64,000 nt of DNA from Candidatus Peribacteria bacterium. GTDB lineage: Bacteria > Patescibacteriota > Gracilibacteria > Peribacterales > Peribacteraceae. The notes below the pieces were generated by a model. That model had not been told where the DNA came from. It was given only the letters and a program-made list of their open reading frames with translations, and made no database searches. Numbering within the stretch: the stretch's first letter is position 1; each line of letters opens with the position of its first letter. This document shows, one piece after another, positions 1,969 to 40,287 of this stretch. A program made the position numbers and the translations under genes. The stretch lies in assembly GCA_016866875.1 (NCBI GenBank), contig VGKY01000002.1, positions 31,688 to 95,687 of the forward strand, written 5' to 3'.

Positions 1969-4416
1969 ATGCGTGCCGATGTCTCCCGTGGCAAGCTCTT
2001 TCTCCGAAGGGACACTATCTCTACACTCACCGACGACATGTCCAAGCGACCCGATATCAACGCTCTGAGAAAAAGTGATTCTGTTCCAGCTTCGTGTCGC
2101 CGCATCCTTGAAAGTAGCAAGGCCCCCGAGCCAGTCTGGATTGGGTCGAAGGAGGCATCGGCGCTCAATGCAAAAGATCGTGCAGCGTACGAAGCTGCGT
2201 GGACGCTGATGCGCCACCTGTGCGTGCAAGCGCCGACGGCGCATGCCTCCGGACATCCGGGTGGCCCCCTTTCCGCATTCACGTTTGCGTACTTCCTGAG
2301 CAAGAGACGTGATCCATCCATCGATGAGCCACTGCGCTACAGCGCGGGGCACCTCTCGCTCCTCGCGTACGGTCTTCAGTGGATGTTTGGGAGAGAGGGC
2401 AACGACAAGCGGCTCGCATCGCCTCAAGCGATCATTGATACCTTCCGTACCCCTTCGGGACTTCCCGGGCATGTCGAGGCGGGCATCGGCGACATTCCCT
2501 TTGGCACGGGCCCACTCGGCAAAGGCGTCAGCAACGCTCTCGGCGTTGCCTTCGGCTACCAGTACCGATTACGCTCCAAGCTCCAAGCTCCAAGCTCCAA
2601 GCTTCCTATCGTTGATGTCGTTCTCGCCGACGGAGACAGTCAGGAAGGGCAGGTGATGGAGGCCTTTCGCCTGGCATCCCACCTCAGGGTCGACAATCTC
2701 GTCGTCCATGGCGATTGGAACGACGTGCAACTTTCGGGGCTTCCGAGCAAAACGGTTGCGAGCGACTTCGCGCGCATCGCCGAGGCATGCGGCTGGCAAG
2801 TGATCGAGGTGGAGAATGGCAACGACCCTTCGCAAGTCGTTGCCGCACACGATGCAGCGGATCGCTGCATCGGCAAGGGTGCCCCCATCTTCATCTGCTA
2901 CTACACGACCATGGGGCACGGCATAGCCATGATGGAAGAGGGCAGCAACACCGGGATGCGGAATTTTCACGGCACACCCCTATCGAAAGAAGATGCTGCA
3001 AAGGTACTTGAGGAACTCCCCGACCTGGATGCGGCTATCGCTACTTATGAACCGCTACGCAAAGAGCAGAAACAGAGGTACGGACGTAGACGATCGCAAG
3101 CAGCTTCCCTCAGGTGGGATGTCGTCGATCTGCAAAAGAAGGGATACGCCCGGACCATCACGAAGGAAAAAGGTGCAGCAAGAAAAGACCTCGGAGCTGT
3201 GCACCTACTGCAACTGATGAAGGCCGATCCACGGATCGTCGTCTTGCATGCGGACCTGGCGGGTTCTGGAGGATTCGACATCGTTGAGAAAGCACTGCCC
3301 GATCGCGTGATCAACGTGGGCGTTGCCGAGGGGAACATGGCGATGATGGCGGCGGGCATGCGCCAGGCAGGGCTGCTGCCCGTGACGTACACATTCGCCG
3401 CATTCGCAACCAATGAAGCCAGAGCATCGGCGAGGCTCATCGACATCAACTGCAGTCACACCCCGTGTGCAGTCCTTTACGACGCAACCCACACGGGCCT
3501 CTCCGTCGGTGAAGATGGTGAGACGCATCAGGAACGCCACTACCTCAATGTCCCCTTCGACCACACCCAGGTATGGAACCTCGCCGACAGCAACCAAGCT
3601 GCAGCTGCAGCGGAAAAGTCGATGGAGCTCATCGCCGAAGGCCATACGAGCGTTTTTGCATTTTCCCCACGCAGCGGTCACCCGCAGATCGTGAAGGCAG
3701 ACGGCAGCCCGTTATATGGCACGGACTACCAGTTTGACGGAAGAGCCGACATCGTCGCGGGCCATGGAGATCTTCGCGACAATGTCACGATCATCGCTAC
3801 AGGCATCACCGTGCATGCGGCAATTGCTGCTGCTAACCAGCTGTCATCACCTGTAGAGACGTCCCGTCGGGACGTCTCAACAACGCCACACGTGCGAGTC
3901 CTCAACGTCGCGAGCATCCGCCCGCTCGATGCTTCGGCAATCATCCAAGCGGCGCTCGAAACACGGCATCTGATCGTCGTGGAGGATCACTGCTCCGAGG
4001 GTGGCCTTGCAACCCAAGTCGCAGATCTTGTTGCAGACTTCGGTCTCCCCTGCACTCTCCGCAGGCTCGGCGTGAATCAGTACTACCCGTCAGCGACCGA
4101 CAAGGATCTCTTTCTCATGGCCGGGATCGATAGTGAAAGTATTGCAGAGGCCGTCGAGGACGAAGTCCGCAGAGAGGTGCGCAGCGGCGAAGAAGCGCTC
4201 GTGGTAGCTCTCTACGAGATGGCTCACGCAAGCAGCAAGAGCAGATTCCAAAAGGCCGCTCGGCCCTACATTGCTCGGATCATGGAAGACGATACGTATC
4301 TAAGTACCCTTCGAACCGCATGGGCAAAGGGCGCGCTCCTCGCAGAGAGACTCCCCAACAATGCTCGAATCATTGAGCGATTGGGGGGGTGCACGACGAA
4401 CGATTGGGTCTGGTGA
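1969..4416 (+). CDS. tkt: transketolase (N-terminal, pyrimidine-binding and C-terminal domains fused)
   Basis: Motifs: GHPGGPLSAF (TPP-binding), ADGDSQEG...HGDWNDVQ, VAEGNMAMMAAG, GEDGETHQ. In-frame ATGs at 1969 and 2038, so the start is uncertain. About 85 aa at the C-terminus extend past the expected end of the fold. Carries two in-frame repeat insertions (listed separately). Confidence 0.85.
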   Translation: MRADVSRGKLFLRRDTISTLTDDMSKRPDINALRKSDSVPASCRRILESSKAPEPVWIGSKEASALNAKDRAAYEAAWTLMRHLCVQAPTAHASGHPGGPLSAFTFAYFLSKRRDPSIDEPLRYSAGHLSLLAYGLQWMFGREGNDKRLASPQAIIDTFRTPSGLPGHVEAGIGDIPFGTGPLGKGVSNALGVAFGYQYRLRSKLQAPSSKLPIVDVVLADGDSQEGQVMEAFRLASHLRVDNLVVHGDWNDVQLSGLPSKTVASDFARIAEACGWQVIEVENGNDPSQVVAAHDAADRCIGKGAPIFICYYTTMGHGIAMMEEGSNTGMRNFHGTPLSKEDAAKVLEELPDLDAAIATYEPLRKEQKQRYGRRRSQAASLRWDVVDLQKKGYARTITKEKGAARKDLGAVHLLQLMKADPRIVVLHADLAGSGGFDIVEKALPDRVINVGVAEGNMAMMAAGMRQAGLLPVTYTFAAFATNEARASARLIDINCSHTPCAVLYDATHTGLSVGEDGETHQERHYLNVPFDHTQVWNLADSNQAAAAAEKSMELIAEGHTSVFAFSPRSGHPQIVKADGSPLYGTDYQFDGRADIVAGHGDLRDNVTIIATGITVHAAIAAANQLSSPVETSRRDVSTTPHVRVLNVASIRPLDASAIIQAALETRHLIVVEDHCSEGGLATQVADLVADFGLPCTLRRLGVNQYYPSATDKDLFLMAGIDSESIAEAVEDEVRREVRSGEEALVVALYEMAHASSKSRFQKAARPYIARIMEDDTYLSTLRTAWAKGALLAERLPNNARIIERLGGCTTNDWVW
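2573..2600. repeat. heptanucleotide tandem repeat GCTCCAA x4 inside tkt
   Basis: Direct reading gives gctccaa gctccaa gctccaa gctccaa, followed by gcttcc. It translates as RSKLQAPSSKLP in a loop that is variable among transketolases. Confidence 0.9.
3856..3878. repeat. perfect 10-bp inverted repeat (GAGACGTCCC gtc GGGACGTCTC) inserted in frame in tkt
   Basis: Read directly from the sequence. It encodes ETSRRDVS on both strands (compare the antisense ORF 3726..3944). It sits between the conserved AAANQL and VRVLNVASIRPLD blocks. Confidence 0.85.
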
Positions 4417-4441
4417 AAGCCTTCTGCTATCCTCCGCGTAC

Positions 4442-4732
4442 GGAAGGGTGGCCGAGTGGTCTATGGCGCCCCGCACTTTTTGGTACGATTTCACGGGAGC
4501 GTGCCAGAGTAGCCTGCCACGAACCGGAGCGCAGCGACTGGTTCTTTGATCGAACAATGCCCAAAAATATTGTATAATCCGTACGGAAGCGTGCCAGAGT
4601 GGTCGATTGGGCCTGACTTGAAATCAGGTAGACCCGCAAGGGTCTCAGAGGTTCGAATCCTCTCGCTTCCGCCAAATAGTGCGGGGTAGGTCCGCAAGGG
4701 CCTCGGGGGTTCGAATCCCTCCCCTTCCGCCA
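4442..4732 (+). tRNA. interrupted tRNA-Ser-like gene (5-prime half 4442-4473, 3-prime half 4682-4732)
   Basis: 5-prime half: GGAAGGG TG GCC GAGTGGTCTAT GGC G CCCCG. 3-prime half: CGGGG, long variable arm TAGGTCCGCAAGGGCCTC, T-arm GGGGG TTCGAAT CCCTC, acceptor CCCTTCC, then G CCA. The acceptor and anticodon stems are complementary between the two halves. No 7-nt anticodon loop can be defined. The halves are separated by 208 bp containing another tRNA. Confidence 0.45.
4585..4674 (+). tRNA. tRNA-Ser (anticodon UGA), CCA encoded
   Basis: Hand-folded cloverleaf: GGAAGCG TG CCA GAGTGGTCGAT TGG G CCTGA CT-TGA-AA TCAGG, variable arm TAGACCCGCAAGGGTCTC, AGAGG TTCGAAT CCTCT, CGCTTCC G CCA. A TATAAT lies 7 nt upstream. 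Confidence 0.9.
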
Positions 4733-4843
4733 TTGGAGAAAGAATTCATGCATAAAGACACCATTCTTAGGGAAGTATTAATACAACATTCCTAGGATTT
4801 ATAAAGAAACAACAAAAGCAAATTTATGGTAAAATACTAGGAT

Positions 4844-7786
4844 TTGAGACAAAAAACGCCAATTTCGGCATTCTTCATCGTCGCTATCCTTCTGCAGCAC
4901 ATATCCGCATATGCGAGCAGCTGGAATCCGGGACTCCTCGTGAATACCGAAACCTTTCAGGTGATCGACGATGCCGACACAACATCGGATCTCTACGTTC
5001 GGTTTGGAGACACATTGAATAAACGTCTCACATTCGAGCGCACGCTCGATCGCTTCAATTTCAATGACGATGTCTACGTGTCTGGCGATCTGAATGTGAA
5101 GGGAACCGCATCAGGTAAGACAATCTTCGGTATGGAATCCGTACGGTCCTCAGGTTCCCTCGTCTGGGAAGGAGCTGCATCCGGTGCAAGCCTGTGGGTG
5201 TCGCAGTTCAGGGGAGCGGGACTCGTCACCTCCTGCAATGCCGACAACGAGACTCTCGCCTGGAATGCCACGACGCAGCGGTTTGAATGTGGGGATGACG
5301 ATGGTGGAGGAAGCTCCACCCTTCAGCAAGCGTATGACGCCGACGCAAACGGCAATGATGCAAAAATTGCCTTAACAAGCGACGATGACTCGCTCGTCTT
5401 TTACAATCCAGCATCTGGAGGCACAGATAGCGGCTTTGTGCTTACAGTTCGTCAGTTGGCGACGGCGGGATCGGGCATGTACGTCGATTCCAATGCAACA
5501 AACGGAGCTGTTCTTGCTCTGAACAATCGTCGCGATGGTGGACAACAGCGCTTGGCGCCGCACATTATGTTTGGATACAATGGCGCCTTCTCGACGCGTC
5601 TGTATCAATCAGGAAGTAACACGCTCGCAACGAATGCGCACATACTCCCCGAAACGAAAAATACCTACGACCTCGGTTCACAATCACTTCGATGGCGAAG
5701 CCTCTACCTCTCAGGGTCGAGCCTGCACATTGGTGCAACGGGCAATGAGGCAACCGTCGGGTACAACAGCGCACAGGACTTCTTCTACATTGACCCGGCG
5801 GGCAATGGCACGCCGAGCGTCAGCGTCAAAGATAATGGAAATATGGGTATTGGTACCATTGCTCCTGAAACAAAACTGGAGGTGGTGGGAACCGCATCGG
5901 GCCGCATCATCCACGCGAATGATAAGCTTACGAGTTCTGGAGGAGCCATCATCGATGGCGGAAGCCTGATCATTGGAGCGCGGCAAAACGCAACCGAGCA
6001 CACGTTCACATCGGGATGCAACTGTCTCGATAACCCCGCCGCGGGTACCTTTGGCAATGATGCAAGCCGTAATGGAGTCGTGTCATCGGTTGTGTACAAG
6101 GGCAAGCTCTTCGTTGCAACGAACGAAACAGATGCCGGCGGTGTGTACCGCTACGATGGCGGCACGACATGGACGCTCGTCACCTATGCCGTAGGAGAAG
6201 CGATCTCGACTGATTCGGCGAACATCGACTCGTACGTTCTCGCCGTATTCGATAACACCCTCTACATCGGAAGCCAGGGTACAGCTGACACTGCGGGTCT
6301 CTACTCCAGTACGACTGCGCATACAACCGCCAATTCCTTCACGCTCGTCAACTCCACACGCGGCAGTTTCGGTATGGGTGAAACGGGCATCGACGGTATC
6401 AGTAGCATGACCGTCTGGAACGGTAACCTCATTATCTCCACGCAGGAAGCCAACGACTGGGAACTCGGACGCTACGATGGTGGCACCACCTTCAGCCAAA
6501 TCAACACTACTGGTGGCAAGTTCGTCGCCGCAGATACAGCGGACATCGACGGCGCCGTTCTCGCAGTCTACGGCGGAAGACTCTTCATCGGCGCCGCCAC
6601 GGCCAGCACGACCGCGCGCGTCGGCGTCCATGACGGAGTAGGCACCACCATCACCGATCTCAATGCCACAAAAGGCACGTTCGGCGCCGATACATCTACC
6701 GTCAACGTGACATCCTTGGCCGTGCACAACGGGCAGCTCTACGTCGGAACGAGTAAGACGAATGCGGGCGCAGTGTACCGATGGCTCCCCGATTTCCTCT
6801 CGTCGAGCACCTCCGTAACCAACTTCGACCGGGTGAACTTCGGGCTGGGTGAGATGACCTCGGGAGAAACGGCAAACCTCATCGATTCGGTCATTCTCCG
6901 TGTATACAATGGCAGACTCTACGCAGGAACACAAACGGGAACCGATAACGCAGCAGCGATTTACGTGTACGACGACGTCCCAGATAGCTGGACGATGATA
7001 AACGGAACCAGAGGTACGTTCGGCACCAATACAGGCGTGAATGATGTAGTAAGCATGCAAGTGTTCAACGATGAACTCTACGTAGGAACGGAAGAGACCG
7101 ATGCCGGATCTGTCTACAGCTGGAATAAGAACGAAGAGAATTCCTACAGCCTCAAGTTTGAAAGCGAGAACAGTAACTTCGGCTCTATTTCATTTGTAGG
7201 CACCAATGCTCTCGACACGCATGACCGGCACGGAACCTTCCGCCTCTCGCATGGCGTCGCGCTCAATACTGGGGCTTTCGATTACGCCGAGGACTATCCG
7301 ACGAGCGATACGTCGCTCGAAGCCGGCGAGATCGTCGCAATCTCCGAAACTGGGGGGGGAGCCGTCATGCGTGCAAACTCCAATAACGACGCCGTTGGTG
7401 TCATCTCAGAAAACCCGGGCTTCCTTTTGCAGCCAACTGTGGAGCAGAGCGCAGTATCGCACTACGTTCCCGTTGCGCTGGTCGGCAGAGTGCCTGTAAA
7501 AGTGAGTGCCGAGAATGGACCCATCACTCCGGGAGATTCCCTCACGGTCTCTTCAAAGCCGGGAATCGCCATGAAGGCAAAGGCATCTGGTCGCATCATC
7601 GGTCGTGCGATGAGCTTCTTTGAGGGGCCAGGGGTAGGCAGCGTGCTTCTCTTCATCAACATCTCGCACCACGCTGCAGACGATGAGCTGGCATCGCTTT
7701 CTGCTTCAACGGTAGAAAAGCTCGAAGCCCAGGTCAGGCAATTGCAACGAAAGATCAATGGCCTGCAGCGCAAAGCAAGAGATTGA
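4844..7786 (+). CDS. giant secreted surface protein (paralog family; 7 Kelch-like blades; C-terminal coiled coil)
   Basis: TTG start. Signal peptide ISAFFIVAILLQHISAYA. Family N-terminal block SSWNPGLLVNTETFQVIDD and the RFNFNDDVYVSGDL motif. Seven repeats of the type V(Y/F)xGxL(Y/F)(V/I)G(T/S)...G.VY.(W/Y). The C-terminal block YVPVALVGRVPVKVSAENGPITPGDSL is followed by a heptad-like tail. Confidence 0.8.
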   Translation: MRQKTPISAFFIVAILLQHISAYASSWNPGLLVNTETFQVIDDADTTSDLYVRFGDTLNKRLTFERTLDRFNFNDDVYVSGDLNVKGTASGKTIFGMESVRSSGSLVWEGAASGASLWVSQFRGAGLVTSCNADNETLAWNATTQRFECGDDDGGGSSTLQQAYDADANGNDAKIALTSDDDSLVFYNPASGGTDSGFVLTVRQLATAGSGMYVDSNATNGAVLALNNRRDGGQQRLAPHIMFGYNGAFSTRLYQSGSNTLATNAHILPETKNTYDLGSQSLRWRSLYLSGSSLHIGATGNEATVGYNSAQDFFYIDPAGNGTPSVSVKDNGNMGIGTIAPETKLEVVGTASGRIIHANDKLTSSGGAIIDGGSLIIGARQNATEHTFTSGCNCLDNPAAGTFGNDASRNGVVSSVVYKGKLFVATNETDAGGVYRYDGGTTWTLVTYAVGEAISTDSANIDSYVLAVFDNTLYIGSQGTADTAGLYSSTTAHTTANSFTLVNSTRGSFGMGETGIDGISSMTVWNGNLIISTQEANDWELGRYDGGTTFSQINTTGGKFVAADTADIDGAVLAVYGGRLFIGAATASTTARVGVHDGVGTTITDLNATKGTFGADTSTVNVTSLAVHNGQLYVGTSKTNAGAVYRWLPDFLSSSTSVTNFDRVNFGLGEMTSGETANLIDSVILRVYNGRLYAGTQTGTDNAAAIYVYDDVPDSWTMINGTRGTFGTNTGVNDVVSMQVFNDELYVGTEETDAGSVYSWNKNEENSYSLKFESENSNFGSISFVGTNALDTHDRHGTFRLSHGVALNTGAFDYAEDYPTSDTSLEAGEIVAISETGGGAVMRANSNNDAVGVISENPGFLLQPTVEQSAVSHYVPVALVGRVPVKVSAENGPITPGDSLTVSSKPGIAMKAKASGRIIGRAMSFFEGPGVGSVLLFINISHHAADDELASLSASTVEKLEAQVRQLQRKINGLQRKARD

Positions 7787-30324: not shown

Positions 30325-30401
30325 CGGGACGTAGCTCAGTTGGCTAGAGCGCACGGTTCGGGACCGTGAGGCCGGAGGTTCGAGTCCTCTCGTCCCGACC
30401 A
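30325..30401 (+). tRNA. tRNA-Pro (anticodon CGG), CCA encoded
   Basis: CGGGACG TA GCTC AGTTGGCTA GAGC G CACGG TT-CGG-GA CCGTG AGGCC GGAGG TTCGAGT CCTCT CGTCCCG A CCA. Confidence 0.9.
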
Positions 30402-30961: not shown

Positions 30962-31711
30962 ATGCGCTCATGTGCGAAACATACCGACAATGTGACTATG
31001 AACTTCGACACAGCAATTTATGTCTTGAATGAACGTCTTCGGAAAGAGCAACCTGAGGAGATCAGCAGCTCGTGGATTTCCTCTCGGCTTCCTGCCGTCT
31101 ACCAATTCATCTGGCGCACTATTAGAACGCCACTCGGGGACATCAATTGGGATTGGGTCATTTCCCATCTGGAGTGGGAGCTGCAAAAGCTCTGGCATCC
31201 ACAGCGCTTCAGAAGGAAAGCAGAGTACACCGATGCTGTAGAGGTGCAGATCGCACTCGGAAACTACTACGACAAACGCTACGTGTTTTTCTCTGCACCA
31301 ACGGAAGTGGAGTGGGATATTCGGAGAAGAATCTGCGCCATCTTCGCTCGTCTTGCACAGCGTGGAAATAAAACGGCTGAGGAGGAATTCTTGGAACTCC
31401 TGCGCTTCATGGTGCAGAAGTGGATGGAGTACCGCCCGATGCTCTGGCGGTGGAAGGGATACCCTGAAGATTTGGATAAGGCTCTACGCCGTTGCATTCA
31501 CTGTTACCGCTACACGGGCAATTTCACTTCCTATCTGTATATTTCTCTCATCAAAGCAGGCAGAGGGCTGCCGAAATTCTACGTGTCATCGCTTGATAAG
31601 GTTCTATTCGATGACAGTAGAACGGAAGTGAGGCGACTGGATAGTGTTGTTCAAGACCCCGAAACAGGAGACATCAAGCTCTTTGAGAGAGCGGATTATG
31701 TAGCGGTGTAA
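30962..31711 (+). CDS. hypothetical protein, weak sigma-70 region-2-like segment
   Basis: FLELLRFMVQKWMEY...DLDKALRRCIHCYRYTGNFTSYLYISLIKA...SSLDKVLFDD is reminiscent of sigma region 2. Weak by-eye call. An alternative start at MNFDTAIY is possible. Confidence 0.25.
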   Translation: MRSCAKHTDNVTMNFDTAIYVLNERLRKEQPEEISSSWISSRLPAVYQFIWRTIRTPLGDINWDWVISHLEWELQKLWHPQRFRRKAEYTDAVEVQIALGNYYDKRYVFFSAPTEVEWDIRRRICAIFARLAQRGNKTAEEEFLELLRFMVQKWMEYRPMLWRWKGYPEDLDKALRRCIHCYRYTGNFTSYLYISLIKAGRGLPKFYVSSLDKVLFDDSRTEVRRLDSVVQDPETGDIKLFERADYVAV

Positions 31712-31719
31712 ATGAGATG

Positions 31720-34700
31720 CTATGCTCTCTGAATTCTCATTACCTCCTCAGGCTTTATCTGCATGGGAAGGAACTGTAGCAGTTGTGGGGTAAGTTCTCC
31801 TGTAGCCAGCGAGTGGCGCACAGCAGGCTCAATCTGCTGCCTATAAGGCTCCCTAAACGGCTCAGGCACCCTTGCAGCTACAGCTTCAAGTAAGGCGGTT
31901 TGCATGTGGGGGTGCATGCCATTCAAAAGTGCAGAAATGACGACACGCATTAGGTCATTCTTTTCCAAGAATTGCGTGTACTCGCCATCGGTCAGCAATC
32001 CCTTCTGAACTTCTGTTACAAACGGGTCAATTGAGCTTCCTGCACTCTGTAATCTTTCTCGTAGCAAACGCTCCTGCTCCACAAGGTCATTGAAGAATTG
32101 TTTCACAGTCTTCTCTCCATTAAGCGTACTGAGCAGAAGACCCGCAAACTGACGGTAGCCTTCCTCAGTCCAGCCATTCACAGGCATACATTTGAAATCA
32201 AAGTGTCCGATTTTATGTAGCTGCGGCTGCACCTTTACGTTTCCTCCATGCCTATCACAATCAAACCGTCCGCGTAGTTTGTTATTCAATTCAAAAGCCA
32301 AGATAGCCATTGCTTGTCTCTTCTTGGATGTTTTCTCTGCATCATTATTTTCAGGCAGTTCAATGAAATGTTGTCCCTGAATCTTGGACATTAAGAAGAA
32401 TTTTTCACCAGCAACGATGACATCAGCTGAGTCGAAATAAAACTGCTCGCCATCAACTGCAATGCTGGCTCCCCTGTATATTTCCCTTGCCGCGCCGTAC
32501 TGCTGCTTTGCAAGAGGACAATCTACTTCTAATCCCAAACGCTGGTTCGCTTGGTCAATAAGCTCACGAGTCGTCTGAACTATTGAATGGCCGCTATCCA
32601 ATTCTAAATTGTCAGACATGCGACGCATCGTTTCAAATCCTGCGCGTCCTCTGTTCTCAACGTCAGGACGCAGCAATGAAAGCATGTAGGAATTCCCATC
32701 ACTCATCTCAACTTCCACGACAACGTAGATTGAGCCTGAACCAACAACGTCCCCTATACGGCTGACTTTCGCAGCTTCTTGACTTCCCTGAACAGCATTA
32801 TATTCACGCTCAAGTTCAGAACGCGCACTTTCCACCCATTGTGTTACATCCCATCGTGCAGGTTCGCTTGCATGGAATTTAAGCCGCTTCAGGTCTTCAC
32901 GTATGTTCGTCGGAACCAATGGATGACTTTGTGCTGCCTGTCCAAATTTTGTTTCTGCTGGACCCATGTTTTCGAGGAAGTACGCAAGAGCTTCGCCAAG
33001 ACGCATATCGGATGAACCGCGTTTTTCTGCTGCTGCCATCATTGCACCTAAACAAAGATGCTTCTGATAGTGCGGCAAGGCATCAACATATCCTCTGAGG
33101 AAGAATCTGGCCTCCTCCTCATACAAGCTCCCACCTTTGAAGACTTTTGAAACGGTATAATCGAATGTTTCCTTATCCACCTGATTTACTACCTCCTCAG
33201 GGGAGACGAGCAATTCGCGCACAAGTACGGCTCGCGCCTCAATGGGGGAAGACCAGAAATTTTCATAGAAGTAACGCAGGAATTTGAGTGCGACCTGCTT
33301 CCTGTAAGCGAGAAGCATAGCCTTATCGCTCCCTTCTTCGTAATCTTCTTCCTTCAAGGTAAACCCACCCGACATTAGGTTGTATTTATCCACGAATTCC
33401 AAAGCCTCTTTTCCGCTATCCAGATAACGCTCACAGAAGTCATCGGATAGCGGAGTCGTAAGGAAATCCAGTGTCGCTTTGCGGTGGTCAGGCGACCTGC
33501 GAATGTTGTCTATCGTCGCGTCGGTGAACACTCCGTACAAAGACGACTGAGTGAATGTTTCTTCTGTGACTTCGTAAGCTCTCTTCTGTAGTTCGCAACT
33601 CAAATGATTCTGAGTTTCTAATTTCTTCGCCAAAGAACCTAGTATTTCTGCATGGTCAACGCGGTTCATAGTGGCTCTCACTCTGTCCGCAATGGCAATG
33701 ATGGCAGTTGCATATTCAGCGTCGCCTTTATCCATTCCATAAAGTTTCTTCGCGCTATCAGTCCAAGCATCAATCAGGCGAGTTCTTAGCTTCGGGTCTT
33801 GAATTCTCGCACCACCAAGAAGTTCCTCGCACATCTGCATACATTGCCTGTTTGCATCTGCTGAACCATTATTCAATTCAACAGACCTATCAACCAAAAT
33901 TCTTAGGATTTCATCTGATGTTTCAGGGAAAAGTAATTCAGCCTTAGAGAGGAGTTTCCATTGACGTACAGCACTGGGAAGGTCGGCTGTCTTTGCATTG
34001 TTTGTAGCGTAATTCTTTACTCTCTGTTTTAGCTTTTCTCGTAGGTGTCTTTGAAAATGGGAGTTTGCTACAAGGTCAGCCGTCATACGCTCAACGAAAT
34101 CAGCTGCCTGAGCCAAGGTAGGGATTTTGGTTTCGATAAGTTGTATCGCTTCACAATACAAGCATGACCTTGCTAGGGTCATCTCTTCGGAAAAACCGTT
34201 CACTTCCTGAATCAGTGACAGGAGCTTATTCCATGTGAGGGGTTTGAATTCATATCCATGACCTGTCTTATCGAGCTGCGGCTTTATCAAATTCACATAT
34301 TTTTCTCCAAGTTTGGCATCGTAGAGATCTACGTTTGCAACAAAGTGCGATTGAGGAGTTGATACATAGGAGAATTTCTCTTTCAGAAGCCATTTATCGC
34401 AAAAGGAAATTTTCTCCTCATCACTGAGAGCTTTACACTTCTCATCCAAGAGATAATCAAAGTAGGGATTAGTTCTAATTTCTTTTTTCCTTCCGCCGCT
34501 TCTAGCCGCGAGTCCCTCATCAATACCTGCTAGTGGCATTGTTGAAACGAGCGACTGAAGAATGATTTGCTCTCCACTCTTGGAGGTCAGGAAGTACCTG
34601 AATAACTCAGTGCCTTTCTCACCAAGACTTTCTAACTTTGAAATCAACATTCTCGCTGCGCGTCTGTCATCTTGTAGTGCAAACCAGTTCAGCTCTAGGA

Positions 34701-36747
34701 ATAGCTGGAAATTCTTTTCGCATACATCAAGACAAAGAAGTCCAAGTTTTTGACCTGACTTTGCATTAGAAAGACCCGCCCATGATTCGGAAATCTTTGA
34801 CAAGCGTCTTGCAGCTTCCTCATCTTGTTCTGCTAAAAGAAAATCATGTTCCGCCCAACCACTTAGGTATTGCTCGAATATCGCCTGTATCTTCTCTTCA
34901 TTCTCTATGTTATCACCAATATCAACATCCTTTACAGTGCCGTCTTCATTGAAAGTGAGGGCGTCTACAGTGGTGCCACCATCCCGTGGCCCCTGAGAAA
35001 TTGTGGCAATACTTCCCACTATGTCTCCCAAGGCTTGTGTCCGCATCCTAGCTGTTAAAGTCAGCGCCAAGTCTAAATGATTACAAAGAGCACGCATCAT
35101 AAAGGGGTCTCTTACCAGACCTAAGTACGCAGCTGCCTTTGCGACTTCAGGATGTTCTATAGCAATACTTCTGAGTTCTTCCCAAGCAACATGAACGCCA
35201 CCATCACGCCTTCGTAGGCGACGAATTTTCTCTGTGTCTGGAAAGTCAAATTGCGGCCAATCTATCTTATTCAAGAAATGCAAACCATCTGAACTCTCTA
35301 AGAAAGGCTCTCCTTTTTGTTCTTCCGAACCTTCCAGTAATTCGTTTACAGCTATTGCTGCCTCAATAACTGTTTCCTCATCCCCCTCATACTCCTCTAT
35401 TGATTGAACGAAAGTCTTCACTGCCTTACCTAGTCGCCTGAGCCTTCCTAAGGGCGGTGTACCAAGTGCACTGTAAAGTGTTCCAGCAAGTGCGCTATAT
35501 AGCGTGGACATCTTTGTGATGCTATCCCGCTCGCCAAACTGTAGTACGTGGTTTGCGAAGCTATGAACTGCCTTTCTGTCTTCTGGCGTCTGTACTTCAG
35601 GGCCAAGCTTTCTGATTTCCGCTGCCAAATCACCTATACGTACTTCCCATGTCGTCTTATCCATGTCATCCAGAACGCTCCTTAGAATTTCAATCTTCTC
35701 TATACACGTAGCTCCTGCATATTCAGGGTGTCTGCTCAGATCAGCCTGAACATACGATGTATGGGATGCGCCTTTCACAACTCTTATAATTTCATCATTA
35801 TCTGAATACTTTCCGACCTCTGGGACATCGGGTGCGAGAGTACCTTTTTCCTTCCGAAGATACGCAAGAGTGTCACTGACGATTGAATGGATGTTGTTAG
35901 TTGAGGGATGAACGTCCATGTACTCAAACCATGGGCTAGTGCCTTTGGATTGTTCCTTCATGGCATTGAATAAGCCTTCTCTACCATCTTCGCCAAGTAC
36001 TCTTTCTGGATTAAGCCCTAGCTGCTTGCCCTTCTCACACATCAGAATGAGAGGGAAGGAATACGCAAAGCCTTCCTCTATCTTGGAATTCGGAATGTTC
36101 CCATACACCTGTCTCATCTTCAGATGTGTCATCTCGTGACTCAGTATCGCTACGAAATCATTTGGGGTGCTTACTAAGGGTTGGCCTTTCTTTGCACTGA
36201 ATAGACATTCTGTGAAAACTATAATCGGAGGATTACTATGACGCACAAACCAAGCGTTAGGTTTAGGATCTTTCGATAACAGAAAACGCACGGGCTGTTT
36301 CTTGAAGTCATGTTGTCTAAATGCATGGTGGGGAAGATGTTCGCCGCCTTTTACTTCTGCATATAAATGTTCTCCTAATCCTTGGGCGATTTCCTGAAAC
36401 CTACGTCCTTCCATAGAGTCTGGACTGACGAGCCGCCATGCCTCTGCAAGTTGTGGGGGTATTTCACCTCGTTCCAATTGTTCTTTCATAATCGCTTTTT
36501 CATCTTTCTCTGTCTCTGACGTTTCTTCGTCAGCTTCTTCATCTTCAACAGCAGAAATTTTCTGGTTGTAGTCTCTCCTCATTCGTTGAGTTCGTTTTCT
36601 CACTCCCTTCGCAGCCATTGTCCTATCCTCCATTCCCTCACGTACTTCACCTTGTACGGCTCGCTGCGAGCGTTCCACTTCTAGATCAGGAACGCTAAAT
36701 TCCCTCGCTTCGCCTAATTCAAGCCGCTCCTTTGGGTCATTGACCAT
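31720..36747 (-). CDS. giant (1675 aa) protein: zincin HExxH metallopeptidase-like module plus C-terminal ABC1/UbiB-type kinase-like module
   Basis: No signal peptide. PNAWF...IIVFTECLF...FVAILSHEMTHL (HExxH at 36124-36138). C-terminus: LENMGPAETKFGQAAQSHPLVP, VGSGSIYVVVEV, DCDRHGGNVKV, IGHFDFK. Confidence 0.7.
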   Translation of the reverse strand: MVNDPKERLELGEAREFSVPDLEVERSQRAVQGEVREGMEDRTMAAKGVRKRTQRMRRDYNQKISAVEDEEADEETSETEKDEKAIMKEQLERGEIPPQLAEAWRLVSPDSMEGRRFQEIAQGLGEHLYAEVKGGEHLPHHAFRQHDFKKQPVRFLLSKDPKPNAWFVRHSNPPIIVFTECLFSAKKGQPLVSTPNDFVAILSHEMTHLKMRQVYGNIPNSKIEEGFAYSFPLILMCEKGKQLGLNPERVLGEDGREGLFNAMKEQSKGTSPWFEYMDVHPSTNNIHSIVSDTLAYLRKEKGTLAPDVPEVGKYSDNDEIIRVVKGASHTSYVQADLSRHPEYAGATCIEKIEILRSVLDDMDKTTWEVRIGDLAAEIRKLGPEVQTPEDRKAVHSFANHVLQFGERDSITKMSTLYSALAGTLYSALGTPPLGRLRRLGKAVKTFVQSIEEYEGDEETVIEAAIAVNELLEGSEEQKGEPFLESSDGLHFLNKIDWPQFDFPDTEKIRRLRRRDGGVHVAWEELRSIAIEHPEVAKAAAYLGLVRDPFMMRALCNHLDLALTLTARMRTQALGDIVGSIATISQGPRDGGTTVDALTFNEDGTVKDVDIGDNIENEEKIQAIFEQYLSGWAEHDFLLAEQDEEAARRLSKISESWAGLSNAKSGQKLGLLCLDVCEKNFQLFLELNWFALQDDRRAARMLISKLESLGEKGTELFRYFLTSKSGEQIILQSLVSTMPLAGIDEGLAARSGGRKKEIRTNPYFDYLLDEKCKALSDEEKISFCDKWLLKEKFSYVSTPQSHFVANVDLYDAKLGEKYVNLIKPQLDKTGHGYEFKPLTWNKLLSLIQEVNGFSEEMTLARSCLYCEAIQLIETKIPTLAQAADFVERMTADLVANSHFQRHLREKLKQRVKNYATNNAKTADLPSAVRQWKLLSKAELLFPETSDEILRILVDRSVELNNGSADANRQCMQMCEELLGGARIQDPKLRTRLIDAWTDSAKKLYGMDKGDAEYATAIIAIADRVRATMNRVDHAEILGSLAKKLETQNHLSCELQKRAYEVTEETFTQSSLYGVFTDATIDNIRRSPDHRKATLDFLTTPLSDDFCERYLDSGKEALEFVDKYNLMSGGFTLKEEDYEEGSDKAMLLAYRKQVALKFLRYFYENFWSSPIEARAVLVRELLVSPEEVVNQVDKETFDYTVSKVFKGGSLYEEEARFFLRGYVDALPHYQKHLCLGAMMAAAEKRGSSDMRLGEALAYFLENMGPAETKFGQAAQSHPLVPTNIREDLKRLKFHASEPARWDVTQWVESARSELEREYNAVQGSQEAAKVSRIGDVVGSGSIYVVVEVEMSDGNSYMLSLLRPDVENRGRAGFETMRRMSDNLELDSGHSIVQTTRELIDQANQRLGLEVDCPLAKQQYGAAREIYRGASIAVDGEQFYFDSADVIVAGEKFFLMSKIQGQHFIELPENNDAEKTSKKRQAMAILAFELNNKLRGRFDCDRHGGNVKVQPQLHKIGHFDFKCMPVNGWTEEGYRQFAGLLLSTLNGEKTVKQFFNDLVEQERLLRERLQSAGSSIDPFVTEVQKGLLTDGEYTQFLEKNDLMRVVISALLNGMHPHMQTALLEAVAARVPEPFREPYRQQIEPAVRHSLATGELTPQLLQFLPMQIKPEEVMRIQRA

Positions 36748-36913
36748 ATATACATTTTACAATATAAATATATAATAGTCCACATTATTCCGAGGGAACT
36801 AAACATCAAGAATTCCGTTTCCAGCAAATTTTGACGCGACTTTTTGTGTCACAGAATGTCTATTATGTTCAACACCTCAAGACAAAGAACACAGAAAATC
36901 GGTACTCAGGTCA

Positions 36914-37834
36914 TCAGTCTACTCGAATCGGCTGCAACATGACCGCGCTGTTCTTTAAGCGCTCTAGATTATGAAAATAGCGCTGCGTCGTATTGGGATT
37001 TGAATGACGGGCAAAGTCAGCGGCAGCTATGAGGCTCGCTCCTCCGTTGATCAGGTGAGTGATACTGCTATGTCGTAGGCTGTGCACAGAGATGTTTGGC
37101 CTGTTGATACCTATTCTTTTCAATCTCAGTCGTACCATGTGCTGAATCGTCCTTCTAGCGATTCTATCTTTTGCAGTGTGATTTGTTCCGATGAATAACG
37201 GGTCTGATGTTTTCAAACTACTTCGTGTTTTTAGGTATGACTGAATTACAGCATACACATCGTCTCTCATGCGCGTATCAATGTTCTTCCCGCCCTTACC
37301 TCTAATTCTCAGCACCTTAAGTCCATTCACTTCCGAAAGATCACCTATATTTGCACGAGCTACTTCACAAAGTCGAATGCCGTTAATAAGCAGCAATGCA
37401 CAAATTGCTTTATCTCTCTTTCCAAGGTTCGTTGAGGCATCAATTGAGGAGAGAAATTGGTTGCACTCAGCGAGGGTCAAAATACCTCTCACAGTTTCAT
37501 TACTGACCTTTGGTAGCTTTATTCCTGCACTTGGGTTTGTAGGGATGACTCCCTGCTCATACAGAAAGGTAAATAGCCTTCTAAGTACCGTAAGTTTCTT
37601 CGCAATCGTAGCAGCCTTTAATCCTCGTACCGTCAGGCTTTCCTTGTAGTTCAAAAGATCATGCAAAGTCACTTCATCTGCTCGTTTTCGTATTTTTCTA
37701 TAGAACAAACTGATTTCTTGGGCATACGTCTGCTTAGAGTTTTCACAGCTTTGGTTTGAAATAAATGATTTTGCGTATTCTGCTAATGGGTCACGAAGAG
37801 CTATTGCCTGTGGTGTTTGGGGAATCAATTGCAT
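36914..37834 (-). CDS. tyrosine recombinase / phage-type integrase
   Basis: N-terminal SAM-like domain. Catalytic region: LLINGIRLCEV (Arg), HSLRHSSITHLI (HxxR), ARHSNPNTTQRYFH (His, Tyr). Confidence 0.85.
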   Translation of the reverse strand: MQLIPQTPQAIALRDPLAEYAKSFISNQSCENSKQTYAQEISLFYRKIRKRADEVTLHDLLNYKESLTVRGLKAATIAKKLTVLRRLFTFLYEQGVIPTNPSAGIKLPKVSNETVRGILTLAECNQFLSSIDASTNLGKRDKAICALLLINGIRLCEVARANIGDLSEVNGLKVLRIRGKGGKNIDTRMRDDVYAVIQSYLKTRSSLKTSDPLFIGTNHTAKDRIARRTIQHMVRLRLKRIGINRPNISVHSLRHSSITHLINGGASLIAAADFARHSNPNTTQRYFHNLERLKNSAVMLQPIRVD

Positions 37835-37940
37835 GTCTGTATCCTAATAAATATATTTCTATTAGACAACTAATTATCAGTTGACTAACAGACAAACAAT
37901 TTCTTCCCAAAGTACACTCCCAAACACTATAATTTCTTTT

Positions 37941-38156
37941 ATGAAGAAACGTCCTAAAGCAATGGGAAGGATTGATGTAGCTTCCTATCTCAACATCACC
38001 CCTCAATACGTAGATGTTCTTGCTTCAAAAGGAAAACTCGAATTCCAAGAAACTACATCAGGAAAAATCTTCTTCGAAGATGACGTAAAGAAATATGAGC
38101 TAGAAAGAATAAAGAAAAGAGCAGGAGATAAGAGATTCAAGACAAAGAACTCTTAA
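37941..38156 (+). CDS. excisionase/MerR-like helix-turn-helix protein
   Basis: IDVASYLNITPQYVDVLASKGKLEF...IFFEDDVKKY is typical of small HTH_17/excisionase proteins. Divergent from the integrase. Confidence 0.5.
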   Translation: MKKRPKAMGRIDVASYLNITPQYVDVLASKGKLEFQETTSGKIFFEDDVKKYELERIKKRAGDKRFKTKNS

Positions 38157-38235
38157 AAGAAGAATTAAACGTACTCTACCTACTCCTATAGGCTCTTCTA
38201 CCTCTATTACTATAGTTCGAGGTACAGCAGGGCTA

Positions 38236-38604
38236 TTATGACAGGACTGCGTAACTGGCTTCATTCTGCCATGCGTGTTTTCTGCCGTACTCGAATGACG
38301 GGTCAAAGATGCGAATGACCTCAGCGTACCGTTTGCCAAGATGACCGTGTTCCCTGTGGTGATTCCTGATGCGTTCGACCAACAGACGCTCGATGAAGCC
38401 GATGGGCTGATGTTCCTCGTACAGTTGCCGCAGATAGCCGTCGTACACGTTGTCCTCGTAGGTAGTACGCAGCACACCGAGGATGCCGTGTTTCTTCGCG
38501 TTCCAGCGAACGACGGATTTCCCGCGCTCTGTCTTCACGCCGCCGCGCTTGGCATTGCTTTTGTTCGCGGCGATTTTGGCGGGAGAGGTGACGGCCATAA
38601 ACAA
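38236..38604 (-). CDS. hypothetical protein
   Basis: 122-aa ORF with GC like the host. A truncated paralog lies at 39352..39567. Confidence 0.4.
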   Translation of the reverse strand: MFMAVTSPAKIAANKSNAKRGGVKTERGKSVVRWNAKKHGILGVLRTTYEDNVYDGYLRQLYEEHQPIGFIERLLVERIRNHHREHGHLGKRYAEVIRIFDPSFEYGRKHAWQNEASYAVLS

Positions 38605-38737
38605 CTATAAGGATACAGCAATATAGTAGTTTCCGTGAATCCACTGCCTCATTGCCCATAGAGGGCTCAAAAATAGGATTTGACACTCTGAAATAAAGAG
38701 TGTATTATGTACATATTATCTTTTACCACAGTCTACT

Positions 38738-39274
38738 ATGGAAGCAAAGAAAGACCGCATACAACAGGCACGGGAAACGTATGCAGACAATCCTCTCACG
38801 GCGGCGGAGCTCGCAGTCTTTGAGGCTTTTAGTTCTTTGCCCGAAGATCAGTGGCAGCCCGAAGAAATTCCTACATACTATGCAGGAAAAAAAAAGGGAA
38901 CATTCAAGGTTTTGAATACTGAACTCGATCTAGGCGGCGGGAAAGTCGTTACCTTCAAGAATGTTGTAGTGGACGGATACGGTACGTGGTGGAGGGCTGG
39001 CAACGGTGGAACAATCGAAGTAAAAAAGGAAAATGACACCTTGAAGATTCAACAGGACGATGGAATCTATTTTTCATTCAATGGCGTGCCGCTCGACTAC
39101 CATAGTGGCACGGAAAACTCCGCAACTCTCACGCAGAAGATTTTCGATGTCGTCGAAGGCGTGAAGGCCGTCGGTGAGAAAATGAAGCAGGACATTGAGG
39201 ATCAGCGCAACGGTGAAGTAGACGCACGCAGAAGGGAGATGGCAGAAAAGCTCGAAGGACTTGCTGATTTTTGA
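38738..39274 (+). CDS. hypothetical protein
   Basis: 178-aa ORF followed by a clean intrinsic terminator. No family recognised. Confidence 0.45.
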   Translation: MEAKKDRIQQARETYADNPLTAAELAVFEAFSSLPEDQWQPEEIPTYYAGKKKGTFKVLNTELDLGGGKVVTFKNVVVDGYGTWWRAGNGGTIEVKKENDTLKIQQDDGIYFSFNGVPLDYHSGTENSATLTQKIFDVVEGVKAVGEKMKQDIEDQRNGEVDARRREMAEKLEGLADF

Positions 39275-39300
39275 GCGCCATACCAGCTTCGAGTTTCAGG

Positions 39301-39327
39301 AACCCCGCTCATGCGGGGTTTCTTTGA
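39301..39327 (+). terminator. intrinsic terminator
   Basis: AACCCCGC tcat GCGGGGTT followed by TCTTTG. Confidence 0.7.
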
Positions 39328-39351
39328 ATCATGTCTACGTGCGAGAAAGGG

Positions 39352-39567
39352 TCAGCTTATAATAAGACTGGGTATTTTTTGGCTGATGGATGCCAACTCT
39401 TTTTCAGTCCGAGGATGATAGTTCGGGATGAACATGCGAATGACCTCCACGTACCTTTTGCCGAGATTACCGTGTTCCCTGTGGTAGGATTGTAGGCGTT
39501 CGAGTTGGGCTGCTACTGCCCGACCATCGTCAGTTTTCTCCCGTTTCGCCCACTCCTCAGTCGACTC
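39352..39567 (-). pseudogene. truncated paralog of 38236..38604 (C-terminal fragment, no start codon)
   Basis: Translates ...ERLQSYHREHGNLGKRYVEVIRMFIPNY, versus ERIRNHHREHGHLGKRYAEVIRIFDPSF in the intact copy. An in-frame stop lies immediately upstream. Confidence 0.55.
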
Positions 39568-40287
39568 TCAGAGAAAACGGCAGCAAAATGTATGCTGGAA
39601 ATGTTTCCATAAAATATTTCCGCGTTAAGACAATGTGTTATTATAAAACATTTCTGTTCGCTTTGTGACCAACCATACCGCGAAAATCGAGAAAATGGCG
39701 AAAGAAGAGAACGCTCTCTTTGTGCAAATTTTAGGCCATTTCGGCAATTTTGCTGTAATTTGAACCGAGCGAATACAAGTTTAGTTCACCTGCATCTAGA
39801 CAATACATTGAGTATCAGTACACTGCCGCACTCCCCTTCGGGAGGCTACTATGAAGATCGTGGAGCTCATGCTTCGCAAAGCTTCACTGGAGCCCGTGGC
39901 GACCCACGTGCTGCTCATCACCCTCCTCTCTGTCGTCTTGGTGGTGAGCCTCCCTGCGCATCCGTAAGGGGGTCTAGTGAACAACACGGCAGAAATCTCC
40001 GCCTCAAGCGGAGATACACACACCTTCCCCCGTCTCGAAAGAGACCACCGGACAGTGGGGGTGTTGAACCGTGTGTGGTTTTCCGGAGCCCATCCAATGG
40101 CGAATCGGAAGAGAACGTGTATGCCGCATCATGGTATAGACGAAAAGCAATGCTTGCAGCGGGAGCAGACCGAGCCTAGTCTTACATCGTGATTGGCGCT
40201 TACATCCTCTTCTGCTCCCCCTCCTCCTCCTGCTCTTCGAGCCTGTGGGTGGGTTGCGCGTAGCAGAAAAGGATCCGCGCATACTCC

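Follow-up and report, generated by a model that had tools for sequence, protein, structure and literature searches.

How does a complete tRNA gene come to lie inside the anticodon arm of another one? The question is raised by positions 4442-4732 of a 64,000-nt stretch of DNA from Candidatus Peribacteria (Candidate Phyla Radiation, CPR; Patescibacteria), which we call the window and in whose coordinates all positions are given. There, the two halves of an outer tRNA-Ser gene, named A, bracket an insert that holds an intact inner tRNA-Ser(UGA), named B, and a 5' fragment, named B'; the flanking genes are named T and D, and related loci carry the letter L and a number. In the literature that we searched, there is no description of a bacterial tRNA nested in the anticodon arm of another tRNA. 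The answer that we prefer, and to which we give about an even chance, is that the locus is the scar or the intermediate of an in-place replacement of the tRNA gene A by B, with A no longer functional.

An outer serine tRNA gene in two pieces

The outer gene is a genuine tRNA-Ser in two pieces, preceded by a putative promoter:

4425-4433, + strand: pA, putative promoter, an extended -10-like box TGcTATCCT, 8 nt upstream of A5'
4442-4473, + strand: A5', 5' half of the outer tRNA-Ser, with the acceptor 5' strand, the D arm and the anticodon-stem 5' strand CCCCG
4682-4732, + strand: A3', 3' half of the outer tRNA-Ser, with the anticodon-stem 3' strand, the long variable arm, the T arm, the acceptor 3' strand, G73 and CCA

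The 5' half reads GGAAGGG-TG-GCCG-AGTGGTCTA-TGGC-G-CCCCG and the 3' half CGGGG-T-AGGTCCGCAAGGGCCT-C-GGGGG-TTCGAAT-CCCTC-CCCTTCC-G-CCA, with AGGTCC-GCAA-GGGCCT as the variable arm. When the two are combined, all stems of a class II tRNA form, the only non-Watson-Crick pairs being G-U, and the acceptor stem, D arm, T arm, variable arm, discriminator base and CCA are all in place. What the gene does not have is an uninterrupted anticodon loop of 7 nt, with its U33 and anticodon: at the left junction CCCCG runs into CACTTTT, at the right one AATAGTG precedes CGGGG, and U33 is found in neither. Because the loop is absent, A5' and A3' cannot decode.

The earlier note on this DNA had recognised the two segments as tRNA-Ser halves without a loop, and its reading of the sequence is shared by two programs. 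ARAGORN calls a 90-nt tRNA-Ser when any 7-nt Ser anticodon loop is used to join the halves. A profile hidden Markov model (HMM), built from 19 other Peribacteria tRNA-Ser(UGA) genes and run with nhmmer against the 64-kb window, gave exactly three matches at E < 0.01: the inner tRNA (80 bits, E 6e-24, model positions 1-90), A3' (33 bits, E 2.7e-9, positions 43-90) and A5' (14.7 bits, E 0.0016, positions 1-29). That the halves score as parts of a tRNA is thus true of the lineage profile and not of the generic Rfam covariance models, with which the isolated halves stay below significance, as is expected of half molecules; A3' alone draws a 9-bit truncated match to the tRNA-like domain of tmRNA and nothing better. 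In the unaltered sequence, A is called neither by ARAGORN in default mode nor by Rfam, both of which report the inner tRNA-Ser(UGA) at 4585-4674 alone, and ARAGORN with intron detection over 4430-4745 again has the inner tRNA as its sole call. Such a locus is silently missed by tRNA finders and can be mistaken for an intron or a split tRNA. Among the roughly 55 Peribacteria loci scanned, A3' is the sole orphan T-loop. The box pA was not called in a sigma-70 scan because it has no -35 box; its counterpart in L144, TGgTATACT, is in the same place.

By its sequence, A belongs to the tRNA-Ser family of the Peribacteria. Several sequence types of tRNA-Ser(UGA) are found at the T locus of these bacteria, and the halves of A are of the GGAAGGG type (A-type). 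Over nucleotides 1-27, A5' shows no difference from the intact tRNA-Ser(UGA) of L150 and L188, the final 31 nt of A3' recur unchanged in the tRNA-Ser(UGA) of L047, also of the Peribacteria, and the best overall matches to A, at 72/83, are T-linked UGA isoacceptors; the anticodon stem CCCCG/CGGGG is in no intact gene sampled. A 28-mer of A3' occurs in more than 119 unrelated genomes, mostly of Verrucomicrobiota among the matches listed, and since T-arm and acceptor sequence of this kind is common, L047 alone is informative among these hits. A scan of the JGI metagenomes for the A5' junction pattern gave no further split copies, two IMG/VR matches to the anticodon-stem pattern turned out not to be tRNAs, and phages in GenBank have generic tRNA-Ser similarity and nothing more.

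The nested arrangement is not the product of one assembly. The 291-bp region is 100% identical in ERZ27247963, SRR16108670, SRR16108673, ERR14789950 and ERR14822414, which come from the same species, different sequencing runs and different assemblers, have flanks on both sides and, outside this region, have 0-16 substitutions against the window over 7.4 kb. Paralogous tRNAs can confuse assemblers, the contig of SRR16108673 stops exactly at 4732, the position at which L003 ends, and the contig of L144 ends at the CCA of B; five independent and identical assemblies nevertheless exclude a single-assembly artefact, no misassembly of the sort that the earlier note was wary of is indicated, and we give virtually no credence to a chimeric join of two tRNA-Ser loci. 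As an observation in its own right, L003, L144 and L232 (the last broken inside B) are short-read contigs of different samples that break at or in the 3' end of a tRNA-Ser, which suggests strain-level variation or repeats just downstream of these tRNAs.

The insert and the inner tRNA

The insert (4474-4681, 208 bp) stands in place of the anticodon loop of A. With the stem strands that border it, it contains the following features:

4469-4483, + strand: left arm of an inverted repeat, CCCCG plus CACTTTTTGG, the last 3 nt being the TGn of the next -10 box
4484-4489, + strand: pB', putative promoter, -10-like box TACGAT, 5 nt upstream of B'
4495-4519, + strand: B', 5' fragment of a B-type tRNA-Ser, with nt 1-16, a D-loop deletion and then CCTGC, the start of the anticodon stem
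4521-4544, + strand: hairpin GAACCGG-AGCGCAGCGA-CTGGTTC followed by TTT, forming with B' one block that is 45/47 identical to L004
4573-4578, + strand: pB, TATAAT box, 6 nt upstream of B
4585-4674, + strand: B, inner tRNA-Ser(UGA), called by ARAGORN and by Rfam (tRNA, 56.6 bits)
4672-4686, + strand: right arm of the inverted repeat, made up of the CCA of B, AATAGTG and CGGGG in this order

The ends of the insert prolong the anticodon stem of A. The inverted repeat comprises 15 nt at 93% complementarity, the 5-bp stem being extended by pairing at 9 of 10 further positions into a continuous 15-bp helix with one T-T mismatch, the arms of which are 188 nt apart; by arithmetic, the chance probability of 9/10 pairing beyond the stem is about 3e-5. 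The left arm CACTTTTTGG is homologous to promoter regions of L004, L148, L144, L232 and L189 (the counterparts being CATTTTTGCTATGAT in L004 and L148, CACCTTCCTGGTACACT in L232 and CTTTTCTGGTACTAT in L189), and the relatives that share such promoter DNA of B or B' include ones without an outer gene. Its TGG is the TGn of an extended -10 box, and the box itself, pB', aligns with TATGAT in L004, L148 and L144, TACACT in L232 and TACTAT in L189. For the 7-nt filler of the right arm there is no homologue downstream of B in the relatives. The minimum-free-energy fold of 4442-4732 retains the outer cloverleaf and the 15-bp helix (z = -3.3).

Within these ends, two -10 boxes are correctly spaced, one before B' and one before B, and no open reading frame (ORF) with a recombinase domain lies between T and D. 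Over 4495-4510, B' is identical to the start of the inner tRNA at 15 of 16 positions; it lies about 90 bp upstream of B and is found also in L004-L007. The hairpin after it was not called as a terminator and is not exceptionally stable (z about -0.2), and as a structured RNA the block of B' and hairpin folds no better than its shuffles. The earlier note had drawn much the same picture, with a 208-bp insert ending in 10-bp inverted repeats that match at 9 of 10 positions, a 16-nt copy of the 5' end of the inner tRNA, a TATAAT box, a complete tRNA-Ser(UGA) and a CCA shared with the right repeat, and each of these features was recovered.

Two side observations concern the insert. Between 4495-4555 of the window and 6463-6523 of L004, the identity of B' and hairpin is followed by only about 45% over the next 26 nt and the spacer is not conserved; the block is missing from L148, a close relative of L004, and its sequence would fit either constraint or recent exchange. 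In B-type loci, the B cassette is repeatedly bordered by the hexamer CCGCA(C/G) or by its complement (4471-4476 and 4679-4684 in the window; the tRNA-Ser flanks of L144, L232, L145, L146, L143, L009, L189 and L155), and the copy in L145 is immediately adjacent to an A-like tRNA 3' end in inverted orientation; this motif was noticed post hoc and is not significantly enriched over all loci (p = 0.11).

The T-linked locus in related genomes

The relatives show which of the two tRNA genes is at home next to the flanking genes:

1969-4416, + strand: T, transketolase-family gene of 815 aa (Pfam Transketolase_N, Transket_pyr and Transketolase_C)
4844-7786, + strand: D, downstream neighbour gene of 980 aa, with a weak Peptidase_G2 match

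The T sequence itself is on record, unchanged, as a protein of Candidatus Peribacteria. Homologues of T bear Peribacteria or Peregrinibacteria names, and a tRNA-Ser(UGA) adjoins T, in either orientation, in about 30 related loci. D is conserved downstream; its upstream region aligns with those of L008, L143 and L146, where D directly follows B and the gene order is T, B, D. The inner tRNA is 97-99% identical to the T-linked tRNA of L004, L008, L009, L143, L145 and L146, which make up the window's clade, and this identity, together with the simple gene order of the relatives, marks B as a conserved, syntenic and working gene. In nearly every tRNA-Ser gene of the Peribacteria that was inspected, a -10-like hexamer (TATAAT, TACAAT, TATACT or TATGAT) ends exactly 6 nt, occasionally 5-9 nt, before +1 (4573-4584 and 4428-4441 in the window; L004, L008, L009, L143, L146, L150, L188 and L173), so that transcription is predicted to start at or next to the mature 5' end, with little or no leader left for RNase P.

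Remains of the outer gene are rarer. L144 has T, a -10 box, a decayed A5', a promoter and B, in this order. Its A5' reads GGAAGAGTGGCCGAGTGGCTTAAG-CCCCG, then CAC, so that the junction of CCCCG with CAC is as in the window; the start is 17/18 identical, the 3' strand of the D stem is gone and there are about 5 changes, G6A among them. Outer halves do decay, as this copy demonstrates. Its relic alone is significant against shuffles; candidate A5' relics in L232, L004, L148, L008, L146 and L143 were no more similar than shuffles and were discarded. The two halves A5' and A3' occur together in the window species alone.

Other rearrangements are widespread. L004 has the B' fragment and hairpin upstream of B, the tRNA 3' end is repeated, over 16-19 nt, 70-100 bp downstream in L143 (twice), L009/L010, L189 and L047, an A-like 3' end in reverse orientation stands just before B in L145, and in several lineages the tRNA is inverted relative to T. 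Partial tRNAs, variable presence and decay are features of tRNA pseudogenes and fragments at a hot spot, and on sequence comparison the T-linked tRNA-Ser locus is a recombination hot spot. The suggestion of the earlier note that recombination between tRNA-Ser genes has left scars here is supported in general by these 5' fragments, duplicated 3' ends and inversions. Ordinary tandem tRNA-Ser genes, the finding in relatives that would have told against a nested gene, did not turn up: two intact tandem genes are in 0 of about 35 related loci, and A and B sequences coexist in 2 of them.

The distribution of the tRNA types on the host phylogeny gives a wider view. In a neighbour-joining tree of T, the B-type turns up three times, in unconnected positions: in the window's clade, in L155 with L189, and in L163; L155 and L189 are sister to L150 and L188, which are A-type, and L163 is sister to the A-type L164. 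The B-type L155 and the A-type L188 are 79% identical in T and 75% in the tRNA, whereas the window and L155 are 63% identical in T and 93% in the tRNA. Mean tRNA identity is 95% for B-B pairs with T identity below 70%, 84% for non-B-type pairs and 76% for mixed pairs. As far as these sequences tell, tRNA type is decoupled from host phylogeny, and this decoupling from the linked gene suggests that tRNA-Ser(UGA) alleles move horizontally among Peribacteria. The pattern can have come about either by horizontal allele replacement or by differential loss of two old paralogues. Since no locus among the roughly 35 has two intact genes, coexistence appears to be a rare and probably short-lived state, and for this reason we favour replacement over differential loss.

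The comparison also bears on age. At the 4-fold sites of T, the window is 33-36% identical to L144, L004, L008 and L232, against 28% by chance, and since this is near chance, neutral DNA between the sampled lineages is saturated. Nucleotides 1-18 of A5' and CCCCGCAC are nonetheless kept between the window and L144, with the adjacent leader at chance (10/25). The pristine halves, the A5' relic of L144 and the block of B' and hairpin are thus not neutral relics from a common ancestor but young or constrained, and because the halves are pristine although neutral sites are saturated, either the event that brought A and B together was recent or the halves are under constraint.

Several further observations were made around the locus. 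Units of about 88-105 nt that end in the 16-19-nt copy of the tRNA 3' end follow tRNA-Ser(UGA) in several genomes (L143 5456-5629, with two in tandem; L009 7399-7485, minus strand; L189, downstream of the tRNA; L047 2924-3027; L146 3218-3265; L188 ~5530-5560) and have TCCG(G/T)CT.CGTCTGCGGACT.CGCCG in common, in lineages whose neutral divergence is saturated; they are possibly att-like scars, or else a small element that is mobile or structured. L155 (B-type) and L173 (A-type), far apart on the tree of T, have a common block 1-70 nt downstream of tRNA-Ser(UGA), which starts with (C/T)AGTTGAATTCGAGCTGAG and continues, after about 20 less conserved nt, with AGCACGAAGCCGAAGATACT(G/A)TGTCCCGC. The T ORF of the window is some 7-10 codons longer at its C-terminus than those of its relatives (4385-4416), and the extension holds CGATTGGGTCTGGTGAAAG, which resembles nucleotides 20-38 of B (CGATTGGGCCTGACTTGAAAT), with the first 12 nt matching at 11/12; it may be a further tRNA fragment or a chance match, about 0.2 of which are expected in the region. 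Small 23S_rRNA_IVP genes (PF05635) are variably present upstream of T (L005 1565-1819, L144 397-651, L231 1640-2092), with none in the window. Finally, a low-GC island at 31000-40000 (41-48% against about 56%) starts just after a tRNA-Pro(CGG) at 30325-30401 and carries a tyrosine recombinase ORF (36914-37834, minus strand; Phage_integrase, 90.8 bits), 32 kb from the tRNA-Ser locus, and a 1675-aa ORF that weakly matches Peptidase_M48 and ABC1; the window has no repeat of the tRNA-Pro 3' end as a border, and the island is probably an integrated element.

Replacement in place, rival explanations and known systems

In the replacement that we propose, an A-type tRNA-Ser would formerly have stood at the T-linked locus, where other Peribacteria have this type as their tRNA-Ser(UGA). 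A self-promoted B cassette, consisting of promoter and tRNA with the older B' in front, would then have come to lie in the anticodon stem-loop of A; B, transcribed from its own TATAAT box, would have taken over decoding, and A would have been left dead. We infer that B entered A, rather than that a complex shuffle of tandem copies produced the arrangement, and that B was brought by an integrative element, or through illegitimate repair, and its carrier was later lost; with 208 bp remaining and no recombinase, the vehicle would either have been lost or never have existed. The 10-bp inverted repeat would be a mechanical by-product of junction formation. The right junction, AATAGTG plus CGGGG, is the reverse complement of the left one, CCCCG plus CACTTTT, with one change, and fold-back or template-switch synthesis primed from the quasi-palindromic anticodon stem would yield just such a repeat. 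In this templated fill-in, a 3' end in ...CCCCG from the broken A3' side would anneal to the complement of the A5' stem, copy about 10 nt and join at a CCA/TGG microhomology, with the CCA of B opposite the TGG of the promoter. Since the fill-in would give the same junction, neither a transposon nor a selected helix is needed to account for the inverted repeat.

Several findings speak for this course of events. At its left end, the insert consists of ordinary promoter DNA common to relatives without A, B is resident and functional, the type of A occurs intact at this locus in other Peribacteria, and the tyrosine integrase beside tRNA-Pro indicates that integrative elements exist in this genome. 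The coexistence of A and B in so few loci also fits, as a transient state is expected to be rare. Other findings weigh against it. Neither the insert nor the DNA beside it has an integrase or another mobility gene, the junctions have neither the common-core direct repeat nor the loop remnant expected of site-specific integration, and no viral contig in IMG/VR contains the sequences of A5', A3', B or the B'-hairpin block. The halves of A are pristine and all their stems pair despite saturated neutral divergence, and the CCCCG-CAC junction in L144 and the 45/47 identity of B' and hairpin in L004 need explaining, which recent exchange, a site-specific mechanism or selection could do. The exact order of events is not uniquely reconstructable. 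If the proposal is right, the locus preserves an intermediate of tRNA gene displacement, of which usually the end products alone are visible, and displacement is possible by way of a self-promoted tRNA placed inside the anticodon stem-loop of the resident gene.

Two other explanations account for part of the same evidence. A and B, with extra copies, may have been resident tandem paralogues that were shuffled locally by unequal crossing-over, microhomology deletions or template switching, with no incoming DNA, and the patchy tRNA types of other lineages would then reflect differential loss of old paralogues. B' does duplicate the 5' part of B a short way upstream, L148 and L004 differ by the segment from B' to B as recombination between direct repeats would produce, and there is a possible CCG microhomology at the left junction, with CCGCAC present in L232 without a detectable A5'. 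Furthermore, in the window alone, A5' and B share TAT(C/A)(C/A)TCCG(CG)TAC-GGAAG from box to leader (TATCCT-CCGCGTAC in A5', TATAAT-CCGTAC in B), a likeness that suggests gene conversion or duplication within the locus. Yet the tandem pair from which the shuffle would start is seen in none of the related loci, at least three deletions, or a duplication plus deletions, would be needed to bracket B, and the shuffle itself leaves the 10-bp inverted repeat unexplained; we regard it as unlikely. On the other hand, the constraint hinted at by the intact halves could be functional. The outer gene might be a selected scaffold for the processing or stability of B, or an anticodon-less tRNA-Ser-like RNA, from which B is excised by RNase P and 3' processing and whose halves are held together by the 7-bp acceptor stem and a 12-15-bp helix. 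Seryl-tRNA synthetase (SerRS) takes its identity elements from the acceptor stem, G73 and the long variable arm instead of from the anticodon, and such an RNA could therefore be charged and serve as a SerRS substrate outside translation. In favour of this stand the stems intact despite saturated neutral sites, the first 27 nt of A5' unchanged against L150 and L188 (the L144 relic having about 5 changes), the parts of A5' kept in L144 next to a leader at chance identity, the conservation of B' and hairpin across lineages, the low chance probability of the helix extension and the retained fold. But without a loop there is no decoding, the arrangement with both halves is in one species only, and the outer halves are dispensable, since most relatives are without them and L144 has let its copy decay; the left arm of the helix is promoter DNA conserved by descent, and the z-score is expected from three tRNA-like units regardless of function. 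A functional split gene, which would be the first bacterial split tRNA-like RNA and a counterpart of the archaeal split tRNAs, is in our judgement improbable.

The inverted ends of the insert, matching at nine of ten positions, are those of a transposon in form, and a miniature inverted-repeat transposable element (MITE), or another small transposon with 10-bp terminal inverted repeats and a tRNA as passenger, could have entered the anticodon loop. However, neither the window nor the 230 loci fetched hold a second copy of the insert or of its ends, no target-site duplication is seen (at most, CG may be repeated directly in the flanks CCCCG and CGGGG), and the loop is gone, not split. The supposed left terminal repeat has its homologue in promoter DNA of B or B' where relatives have no outer gene, the right one includes the CCA of a tRNA, and B and B' are syntenic with those of relatives, all of which makes this origin very improbable. 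Of the mobile insertion that the earlier note had entertained, the MITE form is hence not upheld, and the idea of tRNA-carrying DNA interrupting a tRNA-Ser fits. An intron, self-splicing or enzyme-spliced, had also been suggested, and a position in the anticodon arm, as in bacterial group I and archaeal introns, with a helix at the base, would suit one. Rfam nevertheless detects no group I or II family at E<=10 over 4300-4900, no residue of the anticodon loop would be left after removal, the supposed intron contains two -10 boxes and a complete, independent tRNA, and there is no bulge-helix-bulge geometry; this reading is almost certainly wrong.

The proposed replacement has partial parallels in known systems. 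Quasipalindrome template-switch mutations and templated insertions are known as short-range events within one hairpin. Our locus resembles them in that a repeat of the anticodon stem appears lengthened by copying of the opposite arm, with a junction at the CCA/TGG microhomology; it differs in that the arms are 188 nt apart and the event is read from the junction sequence only. Integration in tRNA genes was reportedly divided by Williams in 2002 into sublocation classes. The fragments made by integrases resemble those seen here in that partial genes lie beside a complete one, with 5' fragments upstream, the 3' end duplicated downstream (in the relatives) and a breakpoint in the anticodon stem-loop. 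Such tRNA gene fragments are left by integrative elements (van der Gulik et al. 2023, PMC9897764; PMC3293823), and in Caldiarchaeum a tRNA 5' fragment and a recombinase-bearing insertion lie upstream of a full tRNA (Sugahara et al. 2012, PMC3293823). Usually, however, integrases leave one complete hybrid tRNA and one displaced 3' (or 5') fragment across an element of kilobases, whereas here both halves of one gene, 208 bp apart, bracket a different, complete tRNA. The split, tri-split and intron-containing tRNAs of archaea such as Nanoarchaeum and Caldivirga (PMC10714607, PMC4390854) share with the locus a break at the anticodon arm and a helix that prolongs the anticodon stem. Archaeal halves, though, keep the anticodon loop and a bulge-helix-bulge and are spliced into a decoding tRNA; here the helix is continuous and no loop can be restored, the host is bacterial, and the halves have a complete tRNA between them.

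The closest parallel is the tRNA-dependent lysogeny of actinobacteriophages, in which the phage integrates at a short core in the anticodon region of a host tRNA without rebuilding the gene and supplies a cognate tRNA, on which the lysogen then depends (Guerrero-Bustamante & Hatfull 2024, PMC10865867). The insert in that system is a prophage of 40-50 kb with a tyrosine integrase, arm sites and an 8-17-bp core at both junctions (PMC10865867), unlike the short insert described here, which has no integrase, no core repeat and no loop remnant, and whose junctions are inverted repeats in place of the direct repeats of an attL/attR common core. The inner tRNA also differs, being the conserved resident type of a whole clade, the mobility of which we infer. 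What the two have in common is that an insert breaks a tRNA gene in its anticodon region and brings its own tRNA, here a tRNA-Ser, and the interrupted gene is here probably of the matching kind, the closest relatives of A being UGA isoacceptors. As a part of the replacement that we propose, and with as much to be said for it as against it, the locus may thus be seen as a miniature, 208-bp analogue of tRNA-dependent lysogeny.

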